DNA from: Escherichia coli
GTDB lineage: Bacteria; Pseudomonadota; Gammaproteobacteria; Enterobacterales; Enterobacteriaceae
DNA length: 64,000 bases
Strand: one strand, 5' to 3'
Assembly (NCBI RefSeq): GCF_001677475.2
Contig: NZ_CP015229.1
Shown: piece after piece, positions 1 through 58,949 of the stretch
Numbering within the stretch: the stretch's first letter is position 1
Layout: every line of letters starts with the position of its first letter
Notes under the pieces: generated by a model
Databases searched by the model: none
Told to the model about the DNA's origin: nothing
Seen by the model: only the letters and a program-made list of their open reading frames with translations
Made by a program: the position numbers and the translations under genes

Positions 1-480
1 GACACTTTGTTGTGCCGGGCGGTTTTGCAGAGAAGCGATCACTTCTTCGGTATCCAGATAATGGTAAGCCAGCATATAGGTGAGCTCATCAAGCACCACT
101 AAGTCGTAACGCTTGTCAGCCAGCATCCGTTTGCTTTCCGACCAGACCTCTTTCGCCGCGTCGATATCCGCTTGTCGGTTCTGTGTTTCCCAGGTAAAAC
201 CGGTTCCCATAATATGAAACTCAACCCCCAGCGGCTGGAGAAGGTTGTATTCGCCGTTGTCCCATTGCCCCTTGATGTACTGCGCAACCCCCACCGTTTT
301 GCCATGACCCACCGCGCGCGTCACAGTACCAAACGCGGCAGTGGATTTCCCTTTGCCGTTGCCGGTGAAAACAATCAAGATCCCTTTTTTCTCTATCGCC
401 GCCGCGACGCGCGTATCGACCTGTTCCTTCAATTTCTGCTGGCGCTGCACATGCCGTTCTGTTGAAATTCGCGCTTCCAT
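1..480 (-). CDS. ATP:cob(I)alamin adenosyltransferase paralog (BtuR/CobA/CobO family), N-terminal part; gene continues past window start
   Basis: Minus-strand frame from ATG (complement 478-480) with AGGA Shine-Dalgarno upstream; translation MEARISTERHVQRQQKLKEQVDTRV...GILIVFTGNGKGKSTAAFG...VVLDELTYM matches BtuR P-loop and motifs. Not in ORF track because it runs off the window. Confidence 0.8.
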   Translation of the reverse strand, partial: MEARISTERHVQRQQKLKEQVDTRVAAAIEKKGILIVFTGNGKGKSTAAFGTVTRAVGHGKTVGVAQYIKGQWDNGEYNLLQPLGVEFHIMGTGFTWETQNRQADIDAAKEVWSESKRMLADKRYDLVVLDELTYMLAYHYLDTEEVIASLQNRPAQQSV

Positions 481-489
481 TCATTTTCC

Positions 490-2142
490 TTAATGTCCCG
501 CAGGGCAACTGGCGCAGCGGTGTTGCTGCTCAAACTGACTAAAGAAATTATTGCCTTTATCATCTACCAGGATGAATGCGGGCAGATTTTCCACTTCCAT
601 CATCCACACCGCTTCCATACCCAGCTCCGGGTATTCAAGGCAACGCAGACTTTTGACATATTCTTGCGCCAGTAACGCAGCTGCACCGCCAATACTTCCC
701 AGATTGAAGCCGCCATGTTTGTGACAGGCATCGGTGACCTGCTGGCTGCGGTTACCTTTCGATAACATCACCAGACTGCCGCCAGCCGCCTGGAAGGTAT
801 CGACATAACCGTCCATTCGACCGCCCGTGGTTGGACCCAGTGAACCGCAGGCCATGTTCTCCGGTGTTTTCGCCGGGCCAGCGTAATAGACAATATGATG
901 CTTCAGGTAATCCGGCATCGGTTCGGCGCTATCCAGCCGCGCTTTTATTTTGGCGTGGGCGATATCGCGTGCCACTACGATGGGACCACTTAACGACACG
1001 CGGGTGCCTACCGGTAATCTGGCGAGATCCTGCATCACGTCACGCAACGGACGGTTTAGATCCAGATGTACATGTTGCGCGTGATTTTCTTCCCGCAGTG
1101 AGGCTGGAATATATTGCCCCGGATTGTGTTCGAGTTTTTCCAGCCAGATACCGTGCTTGTTAATTTTTGCTTTGATATTGCGATCGGCAGAACAGGAGAG
1201 CGCCATAGCTATCGGACAAGAGCCACCGTGACGCGGCAGACGAATGACGCGAATATCATGAGCGAAATATTTACCCCCAAATTGCGCACCAATACCAAAT
1301 TGCTGACTGGCCTCGAGCAACACTTTTTCCAGCTCAATATCACGGAATGCTTGTCCCTGCTCGTTTCCGCTGGTGGGCAAATTGTCGTAATATTTCGTTG
1401 AGGCCAGCTTGGCAACTTTTAAGGTTTGATCGGCTGAAAGCCCTCCGACGACAAAGGCGATGTGGTAAGGCGGGCAGGCAGCGGTGCCCAGCGATTTCAT
1501 TTTTTCGATTAAAAATGCGGTCAGTTTTTCTGGTTGCAATAAGGATTTGGTTTCCTGATAAAGTGCGGCTTTATTGGCGGAGCCGCCCCCTTTATTAACA
1601 CAGAGAAAATGGTACTCATTACCAGCGACAGCGTTGATATCAATCTGCGCCGGGAGATTGGTTTGCGTATTGACTTCGGTATACATATCCAGCGGCGCAT
1701 TTTGTGAAAAGCGCAGATTATTTTCCTGGAAAGTGGTGTAAATGCCTTTGCTTAAGGCTTCAGCGTCGTTACCTCCGGTCCATATCTGTTGCCCTTTACT
1801 GGCAACAATAGTTGCGGTGCCGGTATCCTGACAGTTGGGTAATACCCCTTTTGCTGAGACTTCAGCATTACGTAATAACTGCAACGCAACGTATTTATCA
1901 TTACTACTGGCCTGCGGATCGTTAAGAATGCTGGCGACCTGTTGCAAATGAGCGGAACGTAAGAAAAAAGAAGCTTCATAAAATGCCTGCCGGGCAAGCA
2001 GCGTTAATGCTTCAGGTGCGATTTTTATCACTTCTTCGCCGTCTAATTCCGTTACTGTAATATGCTGATCGCTAATTAATGTATATTCTGTACCGTCTTT
2101 ATTTTGTAGAAATGGTTCTTGCCAGATAAATGGTTTGGACAT
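490..2142 (-). CDS. fumD: Class I (Fe-S) fumarate hydratase family; probable mesaconase/fumarase
   Basis: 550-aa ORF, length and sequence typical of FumA/FumB-type hydro-lyases; sits in a glutamate mutase/methylaspartase cluster. The fumD symbol is from my recollection of the E. coli O157:H7 locus. Confidence 0.8.
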
Positions 2143-2249
2143 ATTTCACTTTTCACCTTAAACGTTAGTGTTACTTAATTGCCGTCTAACTTCATGATCC
2201 GGCTTATAAAAATGCATAGTCATTGGCTTCTGATTGCTTAAGATCCCCC

Positions 2250-3530
2250 TCAGGGCAGAGCAACGTTCGATTCATTGGGTTTTAATGCTTTACCCCGACA
2301 GCCCTCGCCGAAATGTTCGCCTTCCCACCGACTCACCATCGCAGCGCCCATTGCGTTGCTCATGACGTTTGTCGCGGAACGCCCCATATCAAGGAACGGA
2401 TCAACGCCCATCAGCAAGATCAGCCCCGCTTCCGGAATATTGAACTGGTTGAGCGTGGCGGCGATAACCACCATTGAAGCGCGTGGTACGCCAGCCATTC
2501 CTTTCGAGGTCAACATCAGGATCAACAGCATGGTGATTTGCTCACCGATGGATAAATGGATATTGCAGGCCTGGGCGATGAAAACTGTGGCGAAGGAGCA
2601 GTAGGCCATTGATCCAACGAGATTAAATGAGTAGCCAATGGGTAAGACAAAGCTGGCAATTTTGGGGGAAACGCCAAATTGCTCCAGTTTTTCAAGCGTT
2701 CCTGGAAAAGCCGCTTCAGAACTGGATGTGGTAAATGCCAGCAGGGCGGGTTCCGAAAGGGCGCGGGTCAGGCGTCTGATGCAGGGGCCGACATAAACGA
2801 TGGCCAGACCGATAAGCAGCACCCAAAGTAACAACATGGTGAAATAAAATTCACCCATAAAGATCCCGGCGCTCACCATAACTGCCAGTCCTCGTTCAGC
2901 AATCAATGCTGAAATAGCGGCGAATACGGTCAGGGGAGCGAAGAGCATGACGTAGCCAGTGAGCTTTAACATGGCATGTGCCAGCGAATCTAAGGCGTGA
3001 ACGATGGCGCTGCCTTTCTCGCCAATCGCCGTCAGGCTACAGCCGAGGAAAATTGAGAACACCACGATTTGCAAAATTTCATTGTGCGCCATGGCATCGA
3101 CAATGCTGGTGGGGAAAGCATGCGAAATAAATACTTTTAGCGTGAAGGGTTCTGACGCGACCACTCCAGTGGTTTCGGCACCGTGTGCAACAAAATTAAT
3201 TCCTGTACCTGGCATGAAGAAATTTACTGTTATTAAGCCTAAGGCAATTGACAGCAATGAGGCGCAAATAAATAAAAAGAGTGTTTTAGAAAAAATACGA
3301 CCAAGGGCTTTGGCATCGCCCATTTTAGCAATACCTACCACCAGGGTAGAGACCACTAACGGAGCGATAATCATTTTTATCAGTCGTAAGAAAATCGTCG
3401 TGAATATCGATATTTCTTGCGCATAGAGTTTTGCGGTTTCCGGTGAAGCAGTGTTATTGAGCACTACGCCGATAACCATTCCAAGTACCAGCGCCAAAAG
3501 AATCATCGTGGTTAAACTTATTTTCTTCAT
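2250..3530 (-). CDS. Dicarboxylate/amino acid:cation symporter (GltP/DctA-like), possible glutamate or C4/C5-dicarboxylate transporter
   Basis: Hydrophobic multi-TM ORF with DAACS-like motifs; start chosen at MKKISL (complement ATG 3528-3530) preceded by GGAGG; ORF-track start at 3551 rejected. Confidence 0.75.
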   Translation of the reverse strand: MKKISLTTMILLALVLGMVIGVVLNNTASPETAKLYAQEISIFTTIFLRLIKMIIAPLVVSTLVVGIAKMGDAKALGRIFSKTLFLFICASLLSIALGLITVNFFMPGTGINFVAHGAETTGVVASEPFTLKVFISHAFPTSIVDAMAHNEILQIVVFSIFLGCSLTAIGEKGSAIVHALDSLAHAMLKLTGYVMLFAPLTVFAAISALIAERGLAVMVSAGIFMGEFYFTMLLLWVLLIGLAIVYVGPCIRRLTRALSEPALLAFTTSSSEAAFPGTLEKLEQFGVSPKIASFVLPIGYSFNLVGSMAYCSFATVFIAQACNIHLSIGEQITMLLILMLTSKGMAGVPRASMVVIAATLNQFNIPEAGLILLMGVDPFLDMGRSATNVMSNAMGAAMVSRWEGEHFGEGCRGKALKPNESNVALP

Positions 3531-3690: not shown

Positions 3691-4008
3691 TTACAAATCG
3701 AAACTCATATTTAATAAAGGTGCATGTTGCTGTGCACCATAGACATCATTGTCACCTACATTCCCGGAGATAATATCTCGTGGCATGACGATTTTTACTG
3801 CGTTAGAAGGATCAAACCAGACAATACGATGAATAAAGTCAGGTTCAACATGATATAAGCGCGCAATCAGTTCTGGGGTTAATTGCCCTGATGATTTAAC
3901 TCGCTCATAGTTTTCTTTGGTTTTAAATAAAATATCTAAAACCAGTTCGTAAGGTCCGGCATTTTTCGAACGAATGACTTGCGCCAGTGAGACAATTGAC
4001 TGTTTCAT
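3691..4008 (-). CDS. Small conserved protein of unknown function (DUF4387-like), partner of upstream AtuA-like gene
   Basis: 105-aa ORF; start overlaps upstream gene stop by 4 bp; family assignment from memory of DUF1446/DUF4387 pairing. Confidence 0.6.
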   Translation of the reverse strand: MKQSIVSLAQVIRSKNAGPYELVLDILFKTKENYERVKSSGQLTPELIARLYHVEPDFIHRIVWFDPSNAVKIVMPRDIISGNVGDNDVYGAQQHAPLLNMSFDL

Positions 4009-5375
4009 GCCTGAACTCCTTCTGGCGTCACCTGTTCAATATGGAAATCAAAACGCAGAGCGTCGTTGGCTTCAATCAGGTGATATATGGAAAATTCGTA
4101 TACTGGCCCGCCCTGGATATCAGAAGGGGAGAACGGGAACGCCAGGTTGCCTGCGGTAGCGATGCGGTTTTCATAGCCGTAGTGCAGCATAGTAGAGCGC
4201 ACCAGCGAGCAAACGCTGTTGGCAATTTCCTGGGTCGATGCAACTACATCTAGCACAATCCCCAGCTCATGCCCGGCAGTTTGCATCGGTTCATGGTCGC
4301 CCATCACCCCGTTTTTGCCGTACAGGTGGAAATTGATGCGAATGCTGTCATCGTCGAGCGACAGGTTACGCGAAACGCTGGTTTTGACTTCATCGATGAT
4401 TTTATCGATCCCGGCGATCATGATCGGGTCGCGCGTTCCTGCGATGGTCAGACAGCGGAAGCCCACTCGTCGCGCACCTTCCAGTTTCAGGGCATACGGC
4501 GTTCCTTCATGCTTAGAACCGCTGACGTACACTTCGCCGTCATTGACCGCTTTAAATGTGCAGCCTTTCAGGTTCAACACGCCGCCAGGTCCAGGCAGGA
4601 AGTAGGGATCGGATTTCTCATACAGTGTGTGTGCAGCCGCTGACGTTTCGGTAAATTTACGCTTCGGATTAAATGTCTTCAGCGTAAAGCCGTTGTCATC
4701 AATGATGCCCATCGCACAGTCAGAGCCTGAGCCGGGCGTTGCGGCGATTGCCGCGCATTCAAGGATTTTCCCACAATGCAGCGCCAGACCTTCATCAAAG
4801 CCTTGCATGATCGGTAGCGCAGCAAAGCAGGCCGGGTCGTAAGCGCGCCCGCCCAGCACCACTTGCGCGCCTTCTTTCAGCGCCTGCTGGAAGGGTTCGA
4901 TGCCCATTTGCGCGACGATATACGTACTTTCGTCAATCGCGTCGTGGGTTAACGGCGGGACAAAATCCAGCGCCGTGATTTTGCCGTTATCCAGCGCCTG
5001 GTGGACGATGGCTTTGTCAACGTCTGCCGGGATCAACGCCATCGAGAACGAGAGGTGCTCTTCCCGGGCAATCTCATGAATTATTTCTCGGCACCACTCC
5101 AGGTGTGGTGCGGCACCAGAACCGCCAGCCGTTCCGATCACCACCGGTATATTATTTTGCACGCCTGCGGTGATCATATAGCGCAGATCGCGCTTGACCC
5201 CTGCGCGATCGGTAAACGGTTTGCCTGCCCCGAGGTAGTGGGGGCCTGGATCGGAAGAGCCTGCATCAACGGCGATCAGATCGGGCGATTCTGCCATCGC
5301 TTTGCGGAAGCTCTCTTCCGGGAATCCATACCCGAGGATTGCCGTTGGCGATAAGACTTTAAAAGAACGAGCCAT
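4005..5375 (-). CDS. AtuA-like (DUF1446) family protein of unknown function
   Basis: 456-aa ORF, in-operon between methylaspartase and the DUF4387-like gene; family call from sequence feel, not a search. Confidence 0.6.
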   Translation of the reverse strand: MARSFKVLSPTAILGYGFPEESFRKAMAESPDLIAVDAGSSDPGPHYLGAGKPFTDRAGVKRDLRYMITAGVQNNIPVVIGTAGGSGAAPHLEWCREIIHEIAREEHLSFSMALIPADVDKAIVHQALDNGKITALDFVPPLTHDAIDESTYIVAQMGIEPFQQALKEGAQVVLGGRAYDPACFAALPIMQGFDEGLALHCGKILECAAIAATPGSGSDCAMGIIDDNGFTLKTFNPKRKFTETSAAAHTLYEKSDPYFLPGPGGVLNLKGCTFKAVNDGEVYVSGSKHEGTPYALKLEGARRVGFRCLTIAGTRDPIMIAGIDKIIDEVKTSVSRNLSLDDDSIRINFHLYGKNGVMGDHEPMQTAGHELGIVLDVVASTQEIANSVCSLVRSTMLHYGYENRIATAGNLAFPFSPSDIQGGPVYEFSIYHLIEANDALRFDFHIEQVTPEGVQA

Positions 5376-5378
5376 TTG

Positions 5379-6620
5379 TTAATCCTTAGCCTGCAACAGC
5401 GCGATAGTACGATTCATTTCGTTGAAGACAATATCGAGGCCTTCGTCAAAGCCCATCCCAGGTTTTACCAGCATACGCATAGGGCGAGCGGCAAGGGCGA
5501 CGTGGACACAGGTGCGTGCACTGACATCAGTTTCATTGCAGGTGCCGCCCTGGTACGCTTCCATGTTGTGGCTGTTGCAATAAAGAACTGCATCGACGAT
5601 GTTGTGAATACTGCCCAGATCCGGGGTTTTGATTTGCACCATGTGGCAACTGGCGGCATCAGTGAAATCAACAATATCCTGGTAGGTGTTACACCATTCA
5701 TCGGCCACAATTTTCACGCCGGAACCGAGGCGCATCAGCTCTTTGGTAATCGCGGTCAGCAGGCGAATTTGATCGGGCTTGTTACCGGCATCGACCGGCC
5801 CTTCAATGTAGAGCGGCAGGCCTTGCGCTTCTTTTTCCAGGCTGGCGATGTATTGCGCACAGCGAAGCGGATCCATATCGAAGATCAGACCGATAGTGCC
5901 GTATACATCGATGTGCAGGGTTGGGTGGTAGCGTGCGCTGGTGCGCTTGCTCAGAATGCGATCCGACAGCCAGCGGACATATTCGCGCAGTTTTTCACCT
6001 TTAAAGCCCAGCTTCTCTTCGACGTTATTAATCAGCGCATGGGGCAGCACGTCGATGCCTTTAAGGATCATCTTATCGACGGCGATATATCGATCGTCGC
6101 CGCTCTGACCAAATAATGGAATGGATTCCGCCACGCGTGGCAACTGCCATTCATCACAGACCACTTCAGTTTTCAGACGGCCGGTTGCCAGCGCGGCAGC
6201 ATCAAGCAGCGCCTGTGATAATCCGTAGCGCACGGCGGTATGCAGCAAGTTGCCGTCAATACGCAATTTGTCGAAGAAACGGGCATTCGGCAGGAAAGCA
6301 TCCACATCGCGGCCTACCAGTAATGGCTTAATATGGTCGTTGAGGAACGGAATAAAGTGCTCTGCGAGGAACAGTGGATCGCGACCACCTGCCCCGGAAT
6401 ACTGTACGGCAGCACAGTCACCTACAGCGACCGCGCCGTTTTCCAGAATCAACTGTACCGATACGCACTCCCCAGCCTGACGTACGGCGTTAAACCCTTG
6501 TGTTACTGGCTCCCCGGTATAAAAAAAGCCGTCGTGACCCGCTCCGTTTTTTATCGCCTGCTGGTCATCGAAATAGAATGAGGAATAGCCAGCGGTGAAC
6601 AGGGCCTGTTTTATTTTCAT
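5379..6620 (-). CDS. 3-methylaspartate ammonia-lyase (methylaspartase)
   Basis: 413-aa ORF with blocks CAAVQYSGAGGRDPLF, HIDVYGTIG, HMVQIKTPDLG, KPGMG.DEG matching clostridial methylaspartase; enolase-superfamily length. Confidence 0.9.
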   Translation of the reverse strand: MKIKQALFTAGYSSFYFDDQQAIKNGAGHDGFFYTGEPVTQGFNAVRQAGECVSVQLILENGAVAVGDCAAVQYSGAGGRDPLFLAEHFIPFLNDHIKPLLVGRDVDAFLPNARFFDKLRIDGNLLHTAVRYGLSQALLDAAALATGRLKTEVVCDEWQLPRVAESIPLFGQSGDDRYIAVDKMILKGIDVLPHALINNVEEKLGFKGEKLREYVRWLSDRILSKRTSARYHPTLHIDVYGTIGLIFDMDPLRCAQYIASLEKEAQGLPLYIEGPVDAGNKPDQIRLLTAITKELMRLGSGVKIVADEWCNTYQDIVDFTDAASCHMVQIKTPDLGSIHNIVDAVLYCNSHNMEAYQGGTCNETDVSARTCVHVALAARPMRMLVKPGMGFDEGLDIVFNEMNRTIALLQAKD

Positions 6621-8065
6621 TATGGTCTTCCTATTAATTTACTGTGGGATACAGCATTGATGTCATCTACAACCATCTGGAATGTCGGTTGGCGTCCTTC
6701 AAAGCGTGCGCGTTCCGCAACGTAATCGTGGTGGAGGTCGAGAATATCTTTTGGCAATGGAACGGCTCCGGCTTCCAGTACGCGTATCGCGCCGGTGTTG
6801 TCACGGACCGGAAGAATTTTGCCCGCGTTGCAGGCGGCTGGCGCAAATGGCACATCCAGTACGCCCGCTTCAAATGCCAGCACCGTTCCGCGCGCAATAT
6901 CATCATTACCCAGTTCGAACACTTTATTCAGTACTGCGCGAACCTCGCTCTTAATCAGTTCAATTTCCAGTTCAACCGCAGGGCACGGCGGAAATTTCTG
7001 CTCATTGACCATGTTGAGCATCTGGCGGGAGGCTTTTAGCCCCTGAATGTTGGCAGCGGCAGTCGGGATGCCCCAGGCTTCGTGCGGACTTTTGGTGATG
7101 ACTTTGGTGGCACCAGACATCCCCGCGACGGCTGCGCCCCAGGAGATAATAGCGAACGCTTTCGATTCGTCTTCCGGAAAGCCGCCCATCCACTGGTGAA
7201 ACACGGTACTTAATTCATAGTCGGTATAGCCATAGCTCTGAAAGTAGTCATGTGCAAGTTCACGCAGAGACTGGATCGCCGCAACATCCTGCGTCAGGCT
7301 GCCGACCTGTCCATAACCAACGGTGATAGATTTCACACCCTGTTCCAGTGCCAGCAATCCTTCGATTATCGCGATAGAGTGCGAGATAAACGGCGGGATC
7401 AGCGTACCCGTTAGTGGGCCAAACGGTTCGCGGTTGATGCGGATCCCGTGTTCTTCATACATCCCCATTAAACGGTCGCAGTACTGCCAGTCGCGGATCG
7501 ATTTTTCCAGCGTTACGCGTTTGGCATACGGAATGTTGTAGGAAATGCCGCCGCCTTCATAACTGGTAAAGCCGCTGGACATCGAGATTTCAGCCAGCAG
7601 ACGTGCATCTGGCGTGCCGTGGCGGATCTGTAGCGGTTTTTGCAGGGTTTCGGTGAGGCGACGGCAAGCAGCGACACCATGGTTAACTACCGGTAAACCG
7701 TTCAGTTTAGAGGTTCCGGCTTCGATGGATTTTTTAATCCCTACAGCCGCTTCTTCGTACCGATTCAGACGGGTATATGCATCGATGGTGCTTGGCAGCA
7801 GATCGCACTCTTCTTGTAGTGTTTTCAGTAGTTCGATGTGTTCGTCCATCAGCGCCACACCTGCGCGTGGTTGGCTAAGGGTTTTTCCTTCCTTGTCTGC
7901 TTTCAGCAGCGCAAGAGAGAAGCGTTTATGCTCAGGAATGGTTTGTTGGTATTTAACGCCATCTTCAAAGTTTTCAACATCCTTGCCGGTTTCCCAGGTT
8001 TTCAGTACCTGTTGCCGCTCGGTCATGAATTCGTCATGGGTTAATTTCTTATTTCGAAGTTCCAT
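6620..8065 (-). CDS. Glutamate mutase epsilon (E, catalytic) subunit
   Basis: 481-aa ORF; MELRNKK..., PRAGVALMDEHIELL, HGTPDARLLAEI, FHQWMGGFPEDESKAF match GlmE/MutE; 1-bp overlap with downstream methylaspartase gene. Confidence 0.9.
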   Translation of the reverse strand: MELRNKKLTHDEFMTERQQVLKTWETGKDVENFEDGVKYQQTIPEHKRFSLALLKADKEGKTLSQPRAGVALMDEHIELLKTLQEECDLLPSTIDAYTRLNRYEEAAVGIKKSIEAGTSKLNGLPVVNHGVAACRRLTETLQKPLQIRHGTPDARLLAEISMSSGFTSYEGGGISYNIPYAKRVTLEKSIRDWQYCDRLMGMYEEHGIRINREPFGPLTGTLIPPFISHSIAIIEGLLALEQGVKSITVGYGQVGSLTQDVAAIQSLRELAHDYFQSYGYTDYELSTVFHQWMGGFPEDESKAFAIISWGAAVAGMSGATKVITKSPHEAWGIPTAAANIQGLKASRQMLNMVNEQKFPPCPAVELEIELIKSEVRAVLNKVFELGNDDIARGTVLAFEAGVLDVPFAPAACNAGKILPVRDNTGAIRVLEAGAVPLPKDILDLHHDYVAERARFEGRQPTFQMVVDDINAVSHSKLIGRP

Positions 8066-8083: not shown

Positions 8084-9472
8084 TTATAGGGTTAAGCATT
8101 GAATACTGGTGCGCGCGGCGGCCAGCGGATCGACTCTGGCGACGTTTGCCAGCAGTGGTAATAGCCCCCGGGAATCGCGGTAATATTCAAATTCGGTCGG
8201 TAAGAGAATGCGTTTACCGTCGTCGTTTAACTCGCGGTATTTCAACCAGTGATGCATATCGAACTGACTGGCACGCGAGAGCCATCCGCCGGAACCCACG
8301 ACTTTACGCACGGTTGTCAGGTCACGTCCCATCTGTAAATCGACATTGCCGACGCAGGTGCAGACCTCTTTTTTGGTGCCCGCATGTCTTTCGGTGGCAT
8401 AACCCACACACAGTCCGGCCAGGACGGTATCGAAATATTTCTCTTCTGCATTTGCGGGTAAGTAGTCGGGATGAGCGACTAAATGACGGAGATAATGATA
8501 AAAAGCGTCCAGCTGTGCGGGTTGCTGAGCAAAATTCACATTGACTAACTCTTTCGCACTTTCACCAACCACCACTGCCGAGACGCGCATTCCCAGATCG
8601 CCTTCCACCGTCCGTTTTACGAAGGGTTCCGGTACGCCGTGTAAAACGGTGTCGGGCGAGAGCGTGTTGGCACAGGCGGAATAGACATCGGTGGTTGCGC
8701 CGCCCATGTCGATCAGCATGAACTCTTTCCAGCTGTGATCGACGTTACTGATTGCCTTAACCAGTTCAAAGACCGTCCATGGTGTCGGCCTTGGTTCTTC
8801 GCCTGTTTTATCAACAATGACATCCAGCCCTTTCCCTTTAACGATGCGTTTAAGGAATATGTCGCAAATAGCCTGGCGTGCGGCTAAAGGGTTCGGATGG
8901 TCAAGATCGGGCAGAACGTTGTCGACGATGGTCAGGTCTTTATGCCCGAGGAGCTCCTGCACCTCGTCCTGAATATCCCGGTTTCCGGCATAAATAATGG
9001 CGCAGTCGAGTTGGGATTCTGCCAGCACACGGGCGTTATTCAGTCCGTAACTTTCTTCTCCGCCGTCGGTGCCGCCGGTGAACAAGAGAATATCGGGCTG
9101 CGTTTCTTCCAGTGCCTGGATATCACGGCGGTTCAGCTTGTAGGAGTAATATTGCGCAATTTTAGCCCCCGCAGAGTGAGCGGTTACTTTCGCGGTTTCC
9201 AGGGTGATAGAAGGCACCAATCCCATTGCGGCAACCGCCAGCCCACCTTTGGCAGAGGAGGAATACTTTAATGCAACCTCACCACTGTTTAACAGGGGGA
9301 GGGCATCATCTACGTTTAACACCTGGTCCAGGCTGGAGAAAAACCCCTTCGCCAGATGATGGGTGGTGGTTGGGGTCAGAACGTGGTTAACCAACGTTAA
9401 CGCGTCCCCCTCCCGGGTGAAGAGGGCTGCTTTGGTCCACGTCGAACCAATATCGACAGAGACGATTTGCAT
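8084..9472 (-). CDS. Glutamate mutase component L (MutL/GlmL-type putative reactivating chaperone)
   Basis: 462-aa ORF between the S and E subunit genes, the position GlmL occupies in clostridial operons; N-terminus [18 protein letters not shown] is actin/hsp70-fold like. Confidence 0.8.
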   Translation of the reverse strand: MQIVSVDIGSTWTKAALFTREGDALTLVNHVLTPTTTHHLAKGFFSSLDQVLNVDDALPLLNSGEVALKYSSSAKGGLAVAAMGLVPSITLETAKVTAHSAGAKIAQYYSYKLNRRDIQALEETQPDILLFTGGTDGGEESYGLNNARVLAESQLDCAIIYAGNRDIQDEVQELLGHKDLTIVDNVLPDLDHPNPLAARQAICDIFLKRIVKGKGLDVIVDKTGEEPRPTPWTVFELVKAISNVDHSWKEFMLIDMGGATTDVYSACANTLSPDTVLHGVPEPFVKRTVEGDLGMRVSAVVVGESAKELVNVNFAQQPAQLDAFYHYLRHLVAHPDYLPANAEEKYFDTVLAGLCVGYATERHAGTKKEVCTCVGNVDLQMGRDLTTVRKVVGSGGWLSRASQFDMHHWLKYRELNDDGKRILLPTEFEYYRDSRGLLPLLANVARVDPLAAARTSIQCLTL

Positions 9473-9921
9473 CAGATTGCCTCTTCAAGAATGCGAGTAT
9501 CAACGTCATGACGTTGGTTGATATCGTGGGCCATCAGCTGACAAACATCTTCTAAGTCATGACTTGGGGAAAAGACGCGATCAAATCCCATCTCTTTGAA
9601 CTTGGTTTCCACGTCAGCGAAGTCATGTTTTCCGACCACCAGGTTACCGCCCACATAGAGCAGGATGTTACCCAGCCCACGCTCGATGCAGCGTTCGCGC
9701 ATGCCCAGACAATCGATATCGCCATGCCCATAGATAGAAGAGACGACAATCGCGTCAGCGCCAGTTTCAATAGCAGCATCAATATATTCGTCCTGGCTGA
9801 CCATTACGCCCAGATTAATGACTCTGAAGTCGTGGTTGCTAAAAACGCGGTCCAGAACTTTATTGCCTACTGCATGGCAGTCCGCGCCAATAACGCCAAT
9901 CACAAGTGTTGCTTTCTTCAT
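9472..9921 (-). CDS. Glutamate mutase sigma (S, B12-binding) subunit
   Basis: [24 protein letters not shown] carries the DxHxxG cobalamin-binding motif; start moved to internal ATG (complement 9919-9921) with AAGGA SD; ORF-track start 9984 rejected. Confidence 0.9.
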
Positions 9922-10468
9922 GGGTAATCCTTTGTAAGACAGAGAGTAAAATAAGTTACACACGTCGTATTTATGGCCGCTCATAACGGCACAGGTTTAA
10001 TATCACAGGAGTGTCTTTATCTGACCGTAATGTTGCAATTGATCTATTTTCAAAATGTCTTTCGGGAAATGATTGTTTAAAGTGTGTTTTCAAATTCTCA
10101 TTTTAATTCAGTGTGTTATGTCAACTAATGTCATGAATGTTAAATTTTTAAAATTAACTTGATTTGATGTATTGAGATAATTGTGATCAACTTCTAATTT
10201 GCATTTTTGTGACGTGGCTTTAGCCATGAGTAAATGCATTTCATAAAAGTTAAGTCGAATTTCACTGCAATTCATCTCTGCTTAATGTAAAAATAATGTT
10301 GAAAATAACAAATAATTAATGATTCATGCGAATTATGACCTTTGTTAGCTCTTTTGATTTTTCGTAAAAAAGAAAAGCACATGAAGGTGCTACCAGTACG
10401 AGAAACGTTAATCAAAAGTTTTATTACGTCTGGCAATAACGCAGGCCATTTTTCGCGACAGGAGGGAT
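9922..10468 (-). promoter_or_regulatory. AT-rich leader/promoter region of the glutamate mutase operon
   Basis: About 550 bp non-coding, very AT-rich, directly upstream of the first operon gene; no specific sites identified. Confidence 0.4.
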
Positions 10469-10891
10469 TTAATCAGTATAATCCTCATACAATAGGTCAG
10501 GATTTACAGAACCGTTAACGGGGTTTTGGTGTTGAAATTTAGAAATGGTGGAGTCAATCAATGAAGACAGTATCGAAAAAATGACTGTGTCAGAACTAAT
10601 TTCAATTAATCCTTCTCGTTGTTGATCAAAAAAGATATTTATCTTGATTTCATTTGTACTACGGCAATCAATATGTAGTAATTTTTGATCGCTGAGATTT
10701 TCTGTTTCATAAATGTTTTTGGCGATAGTCGGATGTATTGATGCCAGACATCTGCTCAGATAAGCCATATCCTTTAAGGAACTCCCCGCTGAGTAGAGGA
10801 TGTCAGAGAATTTTTGTGTGTCAACTGTTGTCTCTGAAGCGTATGTTGCATTGACAGGAAGAGTATTGAAAGAGATCTGAGATGGTATCAT
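10469..10891 (-). CDS. Hypothetical acidic small protein (140 aa), second gene of AT-rich two-gene module
   Basis: Complete ORF in AT-rich DNA; Asp/Glu-rich, no motif I recognise. Confidence 0.55.
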   Translation of the reverse strand: MIPSQISFNTLPVNATYASETTVDTQKFSDILYSAGSSLKDMAYLSRCLASIHPTIAKNIYETENLSDQKLLHIDCRSTNEIKINIFFDQQREGLIEISSDTVIFSILSSLIDSTISKFQHQNPVNGSVNPDLLYEDYTD

Positions 10892-10972: not shown

Positions 10973-11917
10973 TTAAAGTATTTTATTGGCTTCGGTTAAC
11001 TGATCTATAACCAGTGCCAGATTGGTAAACATTTTGAAAAAGCGATACTGGCTCGGAATATCTCTTTCAAAGACGAAACATTCAAGGTCATTGTTTGAAA
11101 AATAAAGGACTAGTGTTGCTGATTCGTCAGGGAAAACATGGAAATGTATCTGGTTACCAGAAGGAGGATAGTCCAGAAGAAGGGTATCTTTGCCCGTCAC
11201 ATACCTGTTGTTGTCGTGGACGCTACGCTCACACTTCATCAGAGGTGTCAGGATACTCATGTATTCATCTGATGTTAATTTATTAAAATCATCATTCATT
11301 TTAAAGAAACGATAAAGTAACAGTACATCCTCTTGCGTAACCGGTTCGTTTGTTTTTAGAGGGAAATAAGCGGGAACCAGAAGATGAGGTTCTAATCTAT
11401 TTTGTTGAGCGCTATAACTGAATTTGAACATAAATTCTGGATCGCTCATCAATTGAGCGACATAATTATGCCTGGCTTCAAAAATTTTAATTTTTATCAG
11501 GTTGAATAAGTCTGTTTCGTCATCCTGTATTAAAAGACATTGGCCATAGCAGCCTGGATTTTTTTCATTATAAGCAGAAACGGTTATTCTGTCAGAGGTG
11601 TCAACGTTATATTCAAAAGCCAGATAGTGACCTTCTTCATCGCGATTTGTTTCCAGGTTATTTAAATTCATCACATGAAGTGTTTGCAATGCTGATTCAA
11701 TGAGTTGTTGACTCTCTGAGGTAAATGTTTTGCGCTGCGTTGTATAAAGTGTATCAATTCCAACGACTATCCGATGTGGATCAAGGATGGCGGCAATCAT
11801 CTTTATTACCTGCACAGTCACGGGTGATGTCATTGATTCTTCATCTGTTTTTAGAGGATCATTAGATGGCCAACCTGAGAAGCGATTGACAGCCGAACCG
11901 ATATTATCTGGACTCAT
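10973..11917 (-). CDS. Hypothetical protein (314 aa), first gene of AT-rich two-gene module
   Basis: Complete ORF, same strand and 81 bp upstream of the 140-aa ORF; no TM segments or known motifs recognised; spot-checked 60-bp lines are about one-third G+C. Confidence 0.55.
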   Translation of the reverse strand: MSPDNIGSAVNRFSGWPSNDPLKTDEESMTSPVTVQVIKMIAAILDPHRIVVGIDTLYTTQRKTFTSESQQLIESALQTLHVMNLNNLETNRDEEGHYLAFEYNVDTSDRITVSAYNEKNPGCYGQCLLIQDDETDLFNLIKIKIFEARHNYVAQLMSDPEFMFKFSYSAQQNRLEPHLLVPAYFPLKTNEPVTQEDVLLLYRFFKMNDDFNKLTSDEYMSILTPLMKCERSVHDNNRYVTGKDTLLLDYPPSGNQIHFHVFPDESATLVLYFSNNDLECFVFERDIPSQYRFFKMFTNLALVIDQLTEANKIL

Positions 11918-12722
11918 AGCAGCAACCTCATTGTAATCAAGCGAGGCGCTGAGCGTACTCGGCTATAGAAAAACTAACTTGCAAAAATCGCTCATTTTTC
12001 ATTTATCAGGCGAAAGTGGCCTCTGTTCACTCAGAAACAATCACTCCCGCTAAGTCATACCTGTTTCATCGATACATTTAAGTGATTATTACTAATGAAA
12101 CAATAACATAACGGGCTTACGGTCGGTGCTCATAAAGGCAACAATCAATTAACTTTGATAAAAATATGTTATGTAAAATAGCAACAAATTGGCTACTCTA
12201 ATCAATTGGTATTATAAAAAGAGGATAAGGCGGTTCTGTTAAATAAAACACTGGTTTTTTATCTATACCTTTTCATTGTAATAATTGTGTTGCATAAATA
12301 TTTCACAATAAATTAACAATAAAATCACCAATGATCTATGGTTTATACATAATTAACATATTTGGTTGGTTTTGATATAAATCAATTTTTAATTCTTGAA
12401 AAAAATCTGCAAAACACGATAAATTGTCGTAGATCAAATTGGTGAGATCGTGACAATTTCGCTATAAATTGATCACTGTCGAAAAATGCAAATTTGCTCA
12501 ATAAAAACCTGTTTATTGTAAGGATTTTGCGGCGTAATATAATTACGGGATCAATTTGGTTTATTCATTAACATATTTGTAACTTTTTTATCATTGTCTT
12601 TTCCTCTTTTGATGAAATGGCAACGATAGAGGCGAGCAAATAATTTTGTATTGGGGCATGCGTGTGACCCTTTCTAACGGGGTTCACTCTCGGAGTCTTC
12701 ATGCGATGAGCAAGGAGTCATG
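11918..12722 (+). promoter_or_regulatory. cydAB upstream regulatory region, AT-rich
   Basis: Long AT-rich non-coding region before cydA; in E. coli the cydAB promoters are controlled by ArcA, FNR and H-NS (established knowledge); individual sites not resolved by eye. Confidence 0.5.
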
Positions 12723-20307: not shown

Positions 20308-20853
<546 letters not shown>

Positions 20854-20862
20854 GAGAATTGC

Positions 20863-21654
20863 ATGAGCAGTAACTTCAGACATCAACTATTGAGTCTGTC
20901 GTTACTGGTTGGTATAGCGGCCCCCTGGGCCGCTTTTGCTCAGGCACCAATCAGTAGTGTCGGCTCAGGCTCGGTCGAAGACCGCGTCACTCAACTTGAG
21001 CGTATTTCAAATGCTCACAGCCAGCTTTTAACCCAACTCCAGCAACAACTCTCTGATAATCAATCCGATATTGATTCCCTGCGCGGTCAGATTCAGGAAA
21101 ATCAGTATCAACTGAATCAGGTCGTGGAGCGGCAAAAGCAGATCCTGTTGCAGATCGACAGCCTCAGCAGCGGTGGTGCAGCGGCGCAATCAACCAGTGG
21201 TGATCAAAGCGGTGCGGCGGCATCAACGACGCCGACAGCTGATGCTGGTACTGCGAATGCTGGCGCGCCGGTGAAAAGCGGCGATGCAAACACGGATTAC
21301 AATGCAGCAATTGCGCTGGTGCAGGATAAATCCCGCCAGGATGACGCAATGGTGGCATTTCAGAATTTCATCAAAAATTACCCTGATTCAACTTACCTGC
21401 CAAACGCCAATTATTGGCTGGGTCAGTTAAACTACAACAAGGGTAAAAAAGATGATGCGGCGTACTATTTTGCTTCGGTAGTAAAAAACTATCCGAAGTC
21501 ACCAAAGGCTGCAGATGCGATGTTTAAAGTCGGTGTCATCATGCAGGACAAAGGTGACACCGCAAAAGCGAAAGCCGTATACCAGCAGGTTATCAGTAAA
21601 TACCCTGGTACTGATGGCGCTAAACAGGCACAAAAACGTCTGAACGCGATGTAA
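20863..21654 (+). CDS. cpoB: Cell division coordinator CpoB (YbgF), TPR protein
   Basis: 263-aa ORF with signal peptide, coiled-coil region and C-terminal TPR repeats. Confidence 0.95.
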   Translation: MSSNFRHQLLSLSLLVGIAAPWAAFAQAPISSVGSGSVEDRVTQLERISNAHSQLLTQLQQQLSDNQSDIDSLRGQIQENQYQLNQVVERQKQILLQIDSLSSGGAAAQSTSGDQSGAAASTTPTADAGTANAGAPVKSGDANTDYNAAIALVQDKSRQDDAMVAFQNFIKNYPDSTYLPNANYWLGQLNYNKGKKDDAAYYFASVVKNYPKSPKAADAMFKVGVIMQDKGDTAKAKAVYQQVISKYPGTDGAKQAQKRLNAM

Positions 21655-21818: not shown

Positions 21819-21894
21819 GGGTCGTTAGCTCAGTTGGTAGAGCAGTTGACTTTTAATCAATTGGTCGCAGGTTCGAATCCTGCACGACCCACCA
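21819..21894 (+). tRNA. lysT: tRNA-Lys (anticodon UUU)
   Basis: 76-nt gggtcgttagctcagttggtagagcagttgacttttaatcaattggtcgcaggttcgaatcctgcacgacccacca, anticodon loop cTTTTaa, CCA encoded. Confidence 0.97.
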
Positions 21895-21922
21895 ATCGCT
21901 AAGGTGGAAGCGGTAGTAAAAC

Positions 21923-21994
21923 GTGAAGGATAACGTTGCGTCAGCAACGGCCCGAAGGGCGAGACGAAGTCGAGTCATCCTGCACGACCCACCA
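21923..21994 (+). repeat. Spacer repeat ending in a tRNA-Lys 3' fragment (tcctgcacgacccacca)
   Basis: gtgaaggataacgttgcg.cagcaacggcccg.agggcgag..gaag.cgagtcatcctgcacgacccacca recurs three times in the array. Confidence 0.7.
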
Positions 21995-22029
21995 CTAACA
22001 TAGTTAGTTGTAGTATCCAGCGTAGTATC

Positions 22030-22105
22030 GGGTGATTAGCTCAGCTGGGAGAGCACCTCCCTTACAAGGAGGGGGTCGGCGGTTCGATCCCGTCATCACC
22101 CACCA
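22030..22105 (+). tRNA. valT: tRNA-Val (anticodon UAC)
   Basis: 76-nt gggtgattagctcagctgggagagcacctcccttacaaggaggg...cacccacca. Confidence 0.97.
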
Positions 22106-22107
22106 CC

Positions 22108-22183
22108 GGGTCGTTAGCTCAGTTGGTAGAGCAGTTGACTTTTAATCAATTGGTCGCAGGTTCGAATCCTGCACGACCCACCA
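22108..22183 (+). tRNA. lysW: tRNA-Lys (UUU)
   Basis: Identical to the first tRNA-Lys copy. Confidence 0.97.
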
Positions 22184-22234
22184 CTAATTACGGTGGGTTC
22201 GGTGGAAGTAGTTTGTAGTATCCAGCGCAGTATC

Positions 22235-22310
22235 GGGTGATTAGCTCAGCTGGGAGAGCACCTCCCTTACAAGGAGGGGGTCGGCGGTTCGATCCCGTCA
22301 TCACCCACCA
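22235..22310 (+). tRNA. valZ: tRNA-Val (UAC)
   Basis: Identical to the first tRNA-Val copy. Confidence 0.97.
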
Positions 22311-22313
22311 CTC

Positions 22314-22389
22314 GGGTCGTTAGCTCAGTTGGTAGAGCAGTTGACTTTTAATCAATTGGTCGCAGGTTCGAATCCTGCACGACCCACCA
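22314..22389 (+). tRNA. lysY: tRNA-Lys (UUU)
   Basis: Identical tRNA-Lys copy. Confidence 0.97.
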
Positions 22390-22417
22390 ATTTTAACATC
22401 AAACTCAGATGTTAAGC

Positions 22418-22487
22418 GTGAAGGATAACGTTGCGCCAGCAACGGCCCGTAGGGCGAGCGAAGCGAGTCATCCTGCACGACACACCA
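22418..22487 (+). repeat. Spacer repeat with degenerate tRNA-Lys 3' fragment (tcctgcacgacacacca)
   Basis: Second copy of the spacer element, with one substitution in the acceptor-stem fragment. Confidence 0.7.
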
Positions 22488-22535
22488 ATTTTAAAGATTG
22501 GTTCCGAGTAGAAATCTTTCAGGTAACACCCGTAT

Positions 22536-22611
22536 GGGTCGTTAGCTCAGTTGGTAGAGCAGTTGACTTTTAATCAATTGGTCGCAGGTTCGAATCCTGC
22601 ACGACCCACCA
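22536..22611 (+). tRNA. lysZ: tRNA-Lys (UUU)
   Basis: Identical tRNA-Lys copy. Confidence 0.97.
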
Positions 22612-22644
22612 TCCTGAATGATTAAAGCAGCATAATCCCGCAAG

Positions 22645-22720
22645 GGGTCGTTAGCTCAGTTGGTAGAGCAGTTGACTTTTAATCAATTGGTCGCAGGTTC
22701 GAATCCTGCACGACCCACCA
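22645..22720 (+). tRNA. lysQ: tRNA-Lys (UUU)
   Basis: Identical tRNA-Lys copy, last gene of the array. Confidence 0.97.
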
Positions 22721-22724
22721 ATGT

Positions 22725-22751
22725 AAAAAAGCGCCCTAAAGGCGCTTTTTT
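22725..22751 (+). terminator. Rho-independent terminator of the tRNA operon
   Basis: aaaaaagcgccctaaaggcgctttttt: GC stem flanked by A- and T-runs. Confidence 0.85.
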
Positions 22752-22775
22752 GCTATCTGAGATATTCAAAGATTC

Positions 22776-22876
22776 GAACCTGCAGCAGGTTCGAGTTGAG
22801 CGCAGCGAAACAACGGAGCCGCTCGCGGCGACGGCCCGAAGGGCGAGCGAAGCGAGTCATCCTGCACGACCCACCA
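22776..22876 (+). repeat. Third spacer repeat with tRNA 3' fragment, downstream of the terminator
   Basis: gattcgaacctgcagcaggttcgag...cggcccgaagggcgagcgaagcgagtcatcctgcacgacccacca; T-arm-like and acceptor-like fragments without a full tRNA. Confidence 0.65.
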
Positions 22877-57824: not shown

Positions 57825-57959
57825 GGCTTAACCACTAAACACTCTAGCCTCTGCACCTGGGTCAACTGATACGGTGCTTTGGCCGTGACAATGCTCGTAA
57901 AGATTGCCACCAGGGCGAAGGAAGAAATGACTTCGCCTCCCGTATCTGGAAAGGTGTAC
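57825..57959 (+). promoter_or_regulatory. Molybdenum-cofactor (Moco) riboswitch-like leader of the moa operon
   Basis: Long structured leader (...gcctctgcacctgggtcaactgatacggtgctttggccgtgacaatgctcgtaaagattgccaccagggcgaaggaag...) directly before moaA; boundaries approximate. Confidence 0.55.
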
Positions 57960-58949
57960 ATGGCTTCACAACTGACTGATGCATTTGCGCGTAAGTTTTA
58001 CTACTTGCGCCTGTCGATTACCGATGTGTGTAACTTTCGTTGCACCTACTGCCTGCCGGATGGCTACAAACCGAGCGGCGTCACTAATAAAGGCTTTCTT
58101 ACCGTCGATGAAATTCGCCGGGTTACGTGCGCCTTCGCCAGCCTGGGCACCGAAAAAGTGCGCCTGACAGGCGGTGAGCCGTCTTTACGCCGCGACTTTA
58201 CCGATATCATCGCCGCTGTGCGAGAAAACGACGCTATCCGCCAGATTGCGGTCACCACCAATGGTTACCGTCTGGAACGCGATGTGGCGAACTGGCGCGA
58301 TGCTGGACTTACTGGCATCAACGTCAGCGTTGATAGTCTGGACGCCCGCCAGTTTCACGCTATTACCGGGCAGGACAAATTCAACCAGGTCATGGCAGGG
58401 ATTGATGCTGCATTTGAGGCCGGTTTTGAGAAGGTCAAAGTCAATACCGTGCTGATGCGTGATGTTAATCATCACCAGCTCGAGACCTTTCTGAACTGGA
58501 TCCAGCATCGCCCTATCCAGCTGCGTTTCATCGAACTGATGGAAACGGGCGAGGGCAGCGAGCTCTTCCGTAAGCATCACATCTCTGGTCAGGTTCTGCG
58601 TGACGAGCTACTGCGTCGCGGCTGGATCCACCAATTACGTCAACGCAGCGACGGGCCCGCGCAAGTCTTTTGTCATCCGGATTACGCCGGAGAGATTGGC
58701 CTTATCATGCCGTATGAAAAAGACTTCTGCGCCACTTGCAACCGCCTGCGCGTTTCCTCCATTGGTAAACTCCATCTCTGCCTGTTTGGTGAAGGCGGCG
58801 TTAACCTGCGCGATCTGCTGGAAGACGATACCCAGCAACAGGCGCTGGAAGCGCGTATTTCAGCGGCGCTGCGGGAGAAGAAACAGACCCATTTCCTGCA
58901 TCAAAACAACACCGGTATTACGCAAAACTTATCGTACATTGGCGGCTAA
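57960..58949 (+). CDS. moaA: GTP 3',8-cyclase (Moco biosynthesis, radical SAM)
   Basis: [31 protein letters not shown] radical-SAM cluster motif; internal start (329 aa). Confidence 0.97.

Follow-up and report, generated by a model that had tools for sequence, protein, structure and literature searches.

Glutamate mutase requires adenosylcobalamin (AdoCbl) on its GlmS subunit and is not enclosed in a microcompartment. PduO and EutT, which belong to the pdu and eut operons, respectively, are operon-dedicated adenosyltransferases. Together with CobA, they represent the three known adenosyltransferase (ACAT) families (PMC5282855). A gene cluster for glutamate fermentation in enterobacteria has been described by Kronen and Berg, who characterised the FumD protein of O157:H7 biochemically (PLoS One 2015, PMC4682846). 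Their Fig. 5 legend lists GltP, FumD, “CobA, cob(I)alamin adenosyltransferase” and an LTTR alongside the glutamate mutase and methylaspartase genes, and their Fig. 4 legend presents GlmL/MutL as a chaperone that reactivates the mutase (PMC4682846). The cluster occurs in 26.5% of E. coli and in 90.6% of O157:H7 strains (PMC4682846). In O157:H7 ATCC 700728, no condition was found under which the cluster is expressed, neither methylaspartase nor citramalate lyase activity was present, and glutamate did not support growth, whether or not hydroxo-, cyano- or adenosylcobalamin was supplied; the pathway is incomplete and silent in this one strain tested (PMC4682846). A further paper names methylaspartase just in a metatranscriptome list (PMC11000858).

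In our search of the literature, locus tags such as ECs0756 led only to Kronen and Berg, and none of the searchable papers said more on the cobA gene of this cluster than the label in PMC4682846. Novelty cannot be claimed for the gene itself, as it carries the name CobA in Fig. 5 of that paper and is annotated as cobO by RefSeq in more than 1000 genomes. As an annotation the gene is not new; its product is an unexceptional representative of a known enzyme family, and the kind of arrangement is familiar too. What we add here is the presence of two copies per genome, a strict division of these copies by locus and clade, a conserved coupling junction, an estimate of selection, and a clade signature.

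Results

Island cobA is the last cistron of a glutamate mutase gene series

The window (the whole 64,000-nucleotide stretch of E. coli DNA that was analysed) opens inside the island-borne cobA (Table 1). The reading frame starts with an ATG at 478-480 on the minus strand and runs off at base 1 after 160 codons, so that the window edge cuts the gene with 80% of it inside. The visible 480 nt contain no stop codon or frameshift. All 160 residues are identical (100%) to the first 160 of the 200-residue protein WP_000388207.1; E. coli VCSW7 and O157:H7 strain 380-94 both encode this protein and have the same gene arrangement. The intact gene of VCSW7 measures 603 bp (200 aa). The TAA stop codon of fumD at 490-492 leaves a fumD-cobA gap of exactly 9 nt (481-489), in agreement with the earlier description of a CobA-like gene 9 nt after the mesaconase gene. 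Read on the coding strand, this junction is TAAGGAAAATGAATG and comprises the stop codon, an overlapping AAGGA Shine-Dalgarno sequence, six bases, and the ATG.

Table 1 Features of the cobA end of the window and of the genes preceding cobA (window coordinates).
Feature	Position	Strand	Remarks
Island cobA/BtuR-type adenosyltransferase gene, first 160 of 200 codons	1..480	-	RefSeq “cobO”; 3′ 123 nt lie beyond the window
FTW motif, F95-T-W97 (Phe91/Trp93 of Salmonella CobA)	190..198	-	Alignment to 1G5R
P-loop GNGKGKS, island residues 40-46 (housekeeping G36-T42)	343..363	-	Alignment
fumD stop codon (490-492) and 9-nt spacer with the cobA Shine-Dalgarno sequence TAAGGAAAATGA (coding strand)	481..492	-	
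fumD, mesaconase/FumD-type class I fumarate hydratase	490..2142	-	NF011921, 1279 bits, full length
GltP/DctA-like dicarboxylate/amino acid:cation symporter	2250..3530	-	Annotated start at window position 3530
DUF4387 protein, conserved operon member	3691..4008	-	
AtuA/DUF1446-family protein, conserved operon member	4005..5375	-	
Methylaspartate ammonia-lyase (mal)	5379..6620	-	TIGR01502, 545 bits
Glutamate (methylaspartate) mutase subunit E	6620..8065	-	TIGR01503, 858 bits
GlmL/MutL, glutamate mutase reactivating accessory protein	8084..9472	-	TIGR01319, 884.6 bits; NF040745, 505 bits
Glutamate mutase subunit S, B12-binding, presumed AdoCbl consumer	9472..9921	-	Annotated 149-aa form

The genes follow the order glmS-glmL-glmE-mal-atuA-DUF4387-gltP-fumD-cobA, all on the minus strand; neighbouring genes overlap or are separated by short gaps. 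Adjacent on this one strand, glmS, glmL, glmE, mal, and fumD all score above the equivalog cut-offs for their families; the GlmS family match begins at residue 22-24 of the longer open reading frame. No promoter-like sites were found on the coding strand inside the operon, and no tandem repeats were found between positions 1 and 13000 of the window. Beyond cobA, close relatives have 33 bp, then a convergent LysR-family gene, and then sucD. Directly behind the TAATAA stop of cobA, the 33-bp gap holds an 11-bp hairpin (9 GC) with the arms CTGCGCCTGGC...GCCAGGCGCAG and then GTTTTA, and this hairpin is the sole convincing terminator-like site of the region. Given the terminator-like hairpin directly after it and the LysR gene further on, cobA closes the operon but is not the last gene of the island, which corrects its earlier placement at the end of the island.

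The island sits at the sucD-cydA junction, where K-12 carries sdhX-mngR-mngA-mngB instead. Among 5426 complete E. coli genomes, 1121 contain a counterpart of window positions 1-2200 at 95-99% identity, and RefSeq names the matched loci “class I fumarate hydratase” and “cobO”. This distribution, together with the different content of the same junction in K-12, bears out the view that the cluster is island-borne. Over its conserved part, the window shares 98.5-98.7% identity with the best-matching E. coli genomes, and the island allele has about 1% DNA divergence from the nearest complete genomes. In Enterobacter, the cluster adjoins fimbrial genes.

Family assignment and active-site residues

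Even in its truncated form, the island protein scores 219.5 bits against PRK05986 and 177.9 bits against TIGR00708 (cobA), above the curated NCBIfam cut-offs of 185 and 167.75 bits, respectively, and its orthologues match PF02572. A full-length orthologue can be aligned over its entire length with Salmonella CobA (structure 1G5R; E=2.5e-88). Island CobA matches CobA-type families only (PF02572/PF12557; TIGR00708; PRK05986), with no match to a PduO-type or EutT-type family. The BtuR/CobA-like identity proposed from the raw sequence is thus upheld, and the predicted product is a CobA-type ATP:co(I)rrinoid adenosyltransferase (EC 2.5.1.17). Enzymes of this type form AdoCbl and triphosphate from cob(I)alamin and ATP and depend on reduced flavodoxin.

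We aligned 19 island-type and 67 yciK-linked proteins with one Morganella CobA. Eighty-five columns are invariant across both clades, including the P-loop, R9, F91, W93, R161, H164, K181, H182, and D195. Within the P-loop, an ATP-binding motif of the form GxxGKGK(T/S), G36, N37, G38, K39, G40, and K41 are invariant in the island and housekeeping clades, and position 42 is Thr in the housekeeping copies and Ser in all island copies; Ser also occupies this position in 51 of 128 CobA family representatives. In CobA, four-coordinate cob(II)alamin arises when the Phe91/Trp93 pair displaces the lower ligand. The title of a 2012 paper by Moore et al. describes both residues as critical to the formation of this species. 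The Phe/Trp pair is invariant in the 67 housekeeping sequences, the 19 island-type sequences, and 116 further island-type sequences.

Island carriers hold a second cobA beside housekeeping btuR

A sensitive blastn search with the full cobA gene returned a match in 5422 of the 5426 complete E. coli genomes. The match is only 60-80% identical in 4303 records and at least 95% identical, corresponding to the island allele, in 1122. With 6546 matching places in 5425 records, there is one extra place in essentially every island carrier. The weaker match (about 68% at the DNA level) is the classical btuR located between yciK and rluB, and this housekeeping gene is present in 5422/5426 complete E. coli genomes. 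These counts confirm the suggestion that the island gene is a second btuR copy. The 64-kb window contains no further CobA-like frame. Both CobA copies were also recovered from the genomes of nine other species.

Island CobA and housekeeping BtuR are 67% identical over 196 residues without gaps. We rejected a recent duplication of the host btuR as the source of the island gene: between E. coli and Citrobacter the housekeeping orthologues share 88-91% identity, versus 67% for the island copy and the E. coli gene, and the island copies fall into a clade of their own.

The idea that this gene makes the island “self-sufficient for cofactor activation” does not hold. The island lacks genes for corrinoid uptake, cobalt reductase, and lower-ligand functions, and no cobalamin riboswitch was detected at Rfam gathering thresholds in the whole 64 kb. 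Because every host examined owns a housekeeping CobA, self-sufficiency is not what island cobA provides. “Co-regulated extra capacity” fits better, with the island apparently supplying the adenosylation step only.

Linkage of cobA to the glutamate mutase genes is conserved across genera

A protein search returned homologues of 200 aa with 83-87% identity in Citrobacter, Enterobacter, Salmonella enterica, and [Enterobacter] lignolyticus. Contigs of Salmonella, Enterobacter, and C. koseri share the order glmS-glmL-glmE-mal-AtuA-DUF4387-SDF transporter-(glutaminase)-fumarase-CobA, followed by a convergent LysR gene, and in every one of these contigs compared the fumarase gene ends at 9991 and the CobA gene starts at 10001. 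We then surveyed one genome per species, typing gene context by tblastn, and obtained 80 loci with a bimodal distribution of identities. In all 18 loci with 80-86% identity, the gene immediately follows fumD as part of a glm cluster (Citrobacter spp., a Raoultella MAG, Lelliottia, Buttiauxella, Klebsiella michiganensis, Salmonella, Enterobacter, and C. koseri), and 61 of the 62 loci at 65-71% identity have the yciK-btuR-rluB context. The junction itself is kept as TAAGGAG-N5/6-ATG in Salmonella, Enterobacter, Citrobacter, Lelliottia, Buttiauxella, Klebsiella, and the Raoultella MAG. The linkage of cobA to glutamate mutase genes is conserved over at least seven genera.

Between E. coli and the other genera, dN/dS is about 0.04 for island cobA, compared with 0.03 for fumD, 0.03 for mal, 0.03 for glmE, and 0.04 for atuA; these values are rough because dS is saturated. 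Taken at this precision, they point to strong purifying selection on island cobA.

Clade signature and origin

In neighbor-joining (NJ) analysis of 38 taxa, the island-type CobAs are monophyletic in 50 of 50 bootstraps, and all enterobacterial CobAs group together against the outgroups in 43 of 50. The island proteins carry four extra N-terminal residues and differ from the yciK-linked proteins at 11 positions (T42S, P70D, R74Y, Q85H, V86I, A88G, T102I, H111E, L121Y, V133L, and D136H). Across 116 further island-type cluster representatives, these 11 residues show little or no variation, and three of the changes, Q85H, V86I, and A88G, flank the F91/W93 motif. Arg165 is present in all 67 yciK-linked proteins; in the 19 and 116 island proteins the residue is Ala, Ser, or Thr (rarely Asn, Val, or Lys) and never Arg. 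Buan and Escalante-Semerena are said to have identified R9 and R165 in 2005 as flavodoxin-docking residues.

For a family-wide check, we carried out a HMMER search of 1.84 billion representatives and aligned 128 family members (50%-identity clusters). Position 165 varies across these 128 representatives, and for this reason the idea that losing Arg165 reflects a switch of reductase partner was downgraded to a weak lead. G88, Y121, L133, H85, I102, and S42 are common states in the same alignment. Since these island “signature” states are common in the family, the yciK-linked enterobacterial clade appears to be the derived one, the island clade having kept older states. Retention of older states counts against a recent duplication of the host btuR and does not in itself indicate a new function.

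The CobA of Morganella morganii is 69-70% identical to both E. coli types. Its gene follows genes for a GltP homologue and a 70%-identical FumD and precedes an LTTR gene, and the junction reads TGAGGAG-N5-ATG. This gltP-fumD-cobA-LTTR block abuts the end of a cob operon (cobT, cobC, cobS, cobU, cbiP, cbiO, cbiQ ... cbiM), and no glm or mal genes lie within 10 kb of the fumD-cobA block. The arrangement suggests that the fumD-cobA linkage may predate glutamate mutase or be independent of it. The Morganella copy is sister to the island type in the full NJ tree, but this placement recurs in just 7 of 50 bootstraps, and we did not retain a Morganella-like donor as the origin of the island gene.

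Discussion

Our preferred reading, to which we assign a probability of roughly 0.6, is that island cobA encodes a functional CobA-type enzyme, expressed from the last cistron of the operon, that supplies or recycles AdoCbl for glutamate mutase alongside GlmL. From gene order and conservation, we infer its activity, its co-transcription with the preceding genes, and the use of its product by the mutase. The gene would be transcribed, and probably translationally coupled, as the final cistron of a glmS-to-cobA operon. Induction of the operon would then yield extra enzyme, allowing more of the imported or released cob(II)/cob(I)alamin to be converted with ATP to AdoCbl, which would load glutamate mutase (GlmS/GlmE). 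By analogy with other AdoCbl enzymes, GlmL may eject damaged cofactor, and island CobA would re-adenosylate the inactive cofactor thus released. It is not evident why a private enzyme should be required, since every host has a housekeeping CobA and no microcompartment separates the mutase from it, and this counts against the proposed role. The silence of the cluster in O157:H7 and the Morganella block without glm or mal count against it too. In its favor, a laboratory-evolution study with pseudocobalamin describes selection for btuR overexpression, which let E. coli grow better with a cobamide that it uses poorly (PMC10802341). Adenosyltransferase dose can therefore limit E. coli.

The gene could instead be a redundant passenger, an active or semi-active CobA that travels with fumD, gltP, and the LTTR gene by ancestral linkage from a cob-adjacent donor and does nothing specific for glutamate mutase. 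The Morganella block, with a cob operon at its edge and no glm or mal nearby, is what such a history would leave behind, and the retention of the housekeeping copy in all hosts examined and the undetected expression of the cluster in O157:H7 point the same way. A useless duplicate should decay, however, and this one is intact at the same position over at least seven genera, with a dN/dS of about 0.04, invariant signature residues, a conserved Shine-Dalgarno sequence and spacer, and a protein that is identical in a soil isolate and in O157:H7 E. coli. Purifying selection and positional conservation on this scale argue that the gene is used, and we consider a mere passenger unlikely, if still a serious contender. 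A far simpler objection, that the organism has no btuR besides this one, or that the gene is a remnant without function, derives from the fact that just 160 codons are visible in the window; it is scarcely credible given the yciK-linked gene in nearly all complete genomes (5422/5426), the two places in island carriers, the intact 603-bp gene of close relatives, and the 480 nt free of stops and frameshifts.

Use of the gene need not mean dose. The island protein may be a specialised variant, a diverged CobA subfamily adapted to other cobamides or incomplete corrinoids, to another electron donor, or to direct hand-off to the mutase. The 11 clade-specific residues and the four-residue N-terminal extension, fixed or nearly fixed over 116 representatives, are in keeping with this, as are the substitutions Q85H, V86I, and A88G beside F91/W93 and the replacement of Arg165. 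The family-wide alignment weakens the case, because position 165 varies throughout and many of the signature states are common family states, and we find specialisation improbable as an explanation. More speculative still is a glutamate-mutase-specific loader, in which island CobA and GlmL together would pass AdoCbl, or a different adenosyl-cobamide from the gut pool, directly to GlmS, possibly drawing on a non-flavodoxin donor. We regard this loader as a long shot; if real, it would give the CobA family its first equivalent of the PduO/MMAB-type “adenosyltransferase as chaperone”.

There is little new biology in the gene itself, and the linkage of adenosyltransferases to operons is well known. 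Should the paralogue supply glutamate mutase, as our preferred reading holds, it completes a B12 supply-and-repair module consisting of an adenosyltransferase and the GlmL reactivase, within a pathway that about one-fifth of E. coli genomes carry, O157:H7 among them, as do many strains of Salmonella, Citrobacter, Enterobacter, and Klebsiella. It would also provide a clean case in which a CobA-family enzyme, rather than PduO or EutT, has been recruited into a catabolic operon. Island cobA is a practical handle as well: it marks the 3′ end of the operon, and complementation of btuR offers a simple genetic test.

Comparison with known systems

Relative to the housekeeping CobA/BtuR enzymes (Salmonella CobA, 1G5R/1G5T/1G64/4HUT; E. 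coli BtuR), the island protein belongs to the same family and has the same length and fold-defining motifs, and it is colinear with BtuR at 67% identity. It differs from them in its locus, its separate clade, its N-terminal extension, its 11 substitutions, and the non-Arg residue at position 165. The nearest functional parallel is with PduO and EutT. PduO occurs with PduGH and EutT with EutA, which places an adenosyltransferase beside a reactivase in the operon of an AdoCbl enzyme, and island CobA is encoded alongside GlmL in the same way. Like the genes of this dedicated class, island cobA lies inside an AdoCbl-enzyme operon, with predicted co-transcription. PduO and EutT are, however, unrelated protein families, whereas the island version is built on the CobA scaffold, has no microcompartment, and is only putatively dedicated.

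At the level of the whole locus, the enterobacterial glutamate-fermentation (methylaspartate pathway) cluster of Kronen and Berg (2015) is this cluster, and there is no difference in kind between them. The clusters of C. tetanomorphum and C. tetani have glmS, mutL/glmL, glmE, mal, and a mesaconase of the class-I-fumarase type in common with it. The clostridial clusters include citramalate lyase genes, and an adenosyltransferase is not listed among their members (Fig. 4 legend, PMC4682846). The enterobacterial cluster, in contrast, is without the lyase and adds CobA, GltP, AtuA/DUF4387, and the LTTR.

Organization of the island in E. coli

The coordinates of the features discussed here are collected in the table below. 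Between glmS and cydA lies a stretch with a GC content of only 33-39% that holds two ORFs, both labelled "hypothetical" in E. coli VCSW7, neither of which has a match in Pfam or NCBIfam. This AT-rich stretch forms the island's left end. Between sucD and cydA (compare window 12000-12720), K-12 has sdhX, mngR, mngA, and mngB, whereas island carriers lack these four genes and have the glm island in their stead; the two cassettes therefore look mutually exclusive at this junction.

The family match in the mechanically called 170-aa glmS ORF begins only at residue 22-24, and RefSeq places the start at an ATG at 9921, preceded by AAAGGA, giving a protein of 149 aa. The true start of glmS is probably not that of the longer ORF.

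Positions of genes and RNA elements in the window
Feature	Window position	Strand	Length or basis
AtuA/DUF1446 and DUF4387 genes	3691-5375	-	456 aa and 105 aa
glmS, mechanical ORF	9472-9984	-	170 aa
ORF	10469-10891	-	140 aa
ORF	10973-11917	-	314 aa
CpoB/ybgF RNA thermometer	20754-20892		Rfam match
tRNA array (seven genes) with interspersed RtT repeats	21819-22876		Rfam matches
Molybdenum-cofactor riboswitch	57828-57972		Rfam match

All genera examined keep the AtuA/DUF1446 and DUF4387 genes, which overlap by 4 bp, as a pair flanked by mal and the transporter gene. According to Kronen & Berg (PMC4682846), what becomes of (S)-citramalate in O157:H7 is not known, which makes these two genes obvious candidates for the missing downstream step.

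Beyond the window, in the comparison locus L001, cobA and the LysR gene converge on a 33-bp gap that contains a strong hairpin (11848-11874) with an 11-bp stem, nine G-C pairs, and a following GTTTTA. This hairpin is likely to serve as a terminator for both genes. The RNA thermometer, the riboswitch, and the tRNA/RtT array all fall outside the cobA finding. Within the E. coli collection, fumD-cobA resides on a plasmid rather than the chromosome in one of 1122 carrier records, and a distant search returned seven plasmid-borne CobA-like places.

Arrangement in Salmonella and Morganella

The Salmonella enterica loci (L003/L004, 7244-14845) have a glutaminase gene between the transporter gene and fumD and, past the LTTR gene and before sucD, genes for a TP_methylase (uroporphyrinogen methyltransferase-like), a PocR/AraC regulator, and an Asp/Glu racemase. 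These genes are extra B12- and glutamate-related cargo of the Salmonella island.

The Morganella morganii locus (L067, 6573-20368) has the order gltP-fumD-cobA-LTTR, with an M48 peptidase fragment between the last two genes, and the cob operon (cobT, cobC, cobS, cobU, cbiP, cbiO, cbiQ, and cbiM) ends directly beside this block. No glm or mal genes occur within 10 kb of the block. The Morganella arrangement may reflect the ancestral setting in which fumD and cobA were linked.
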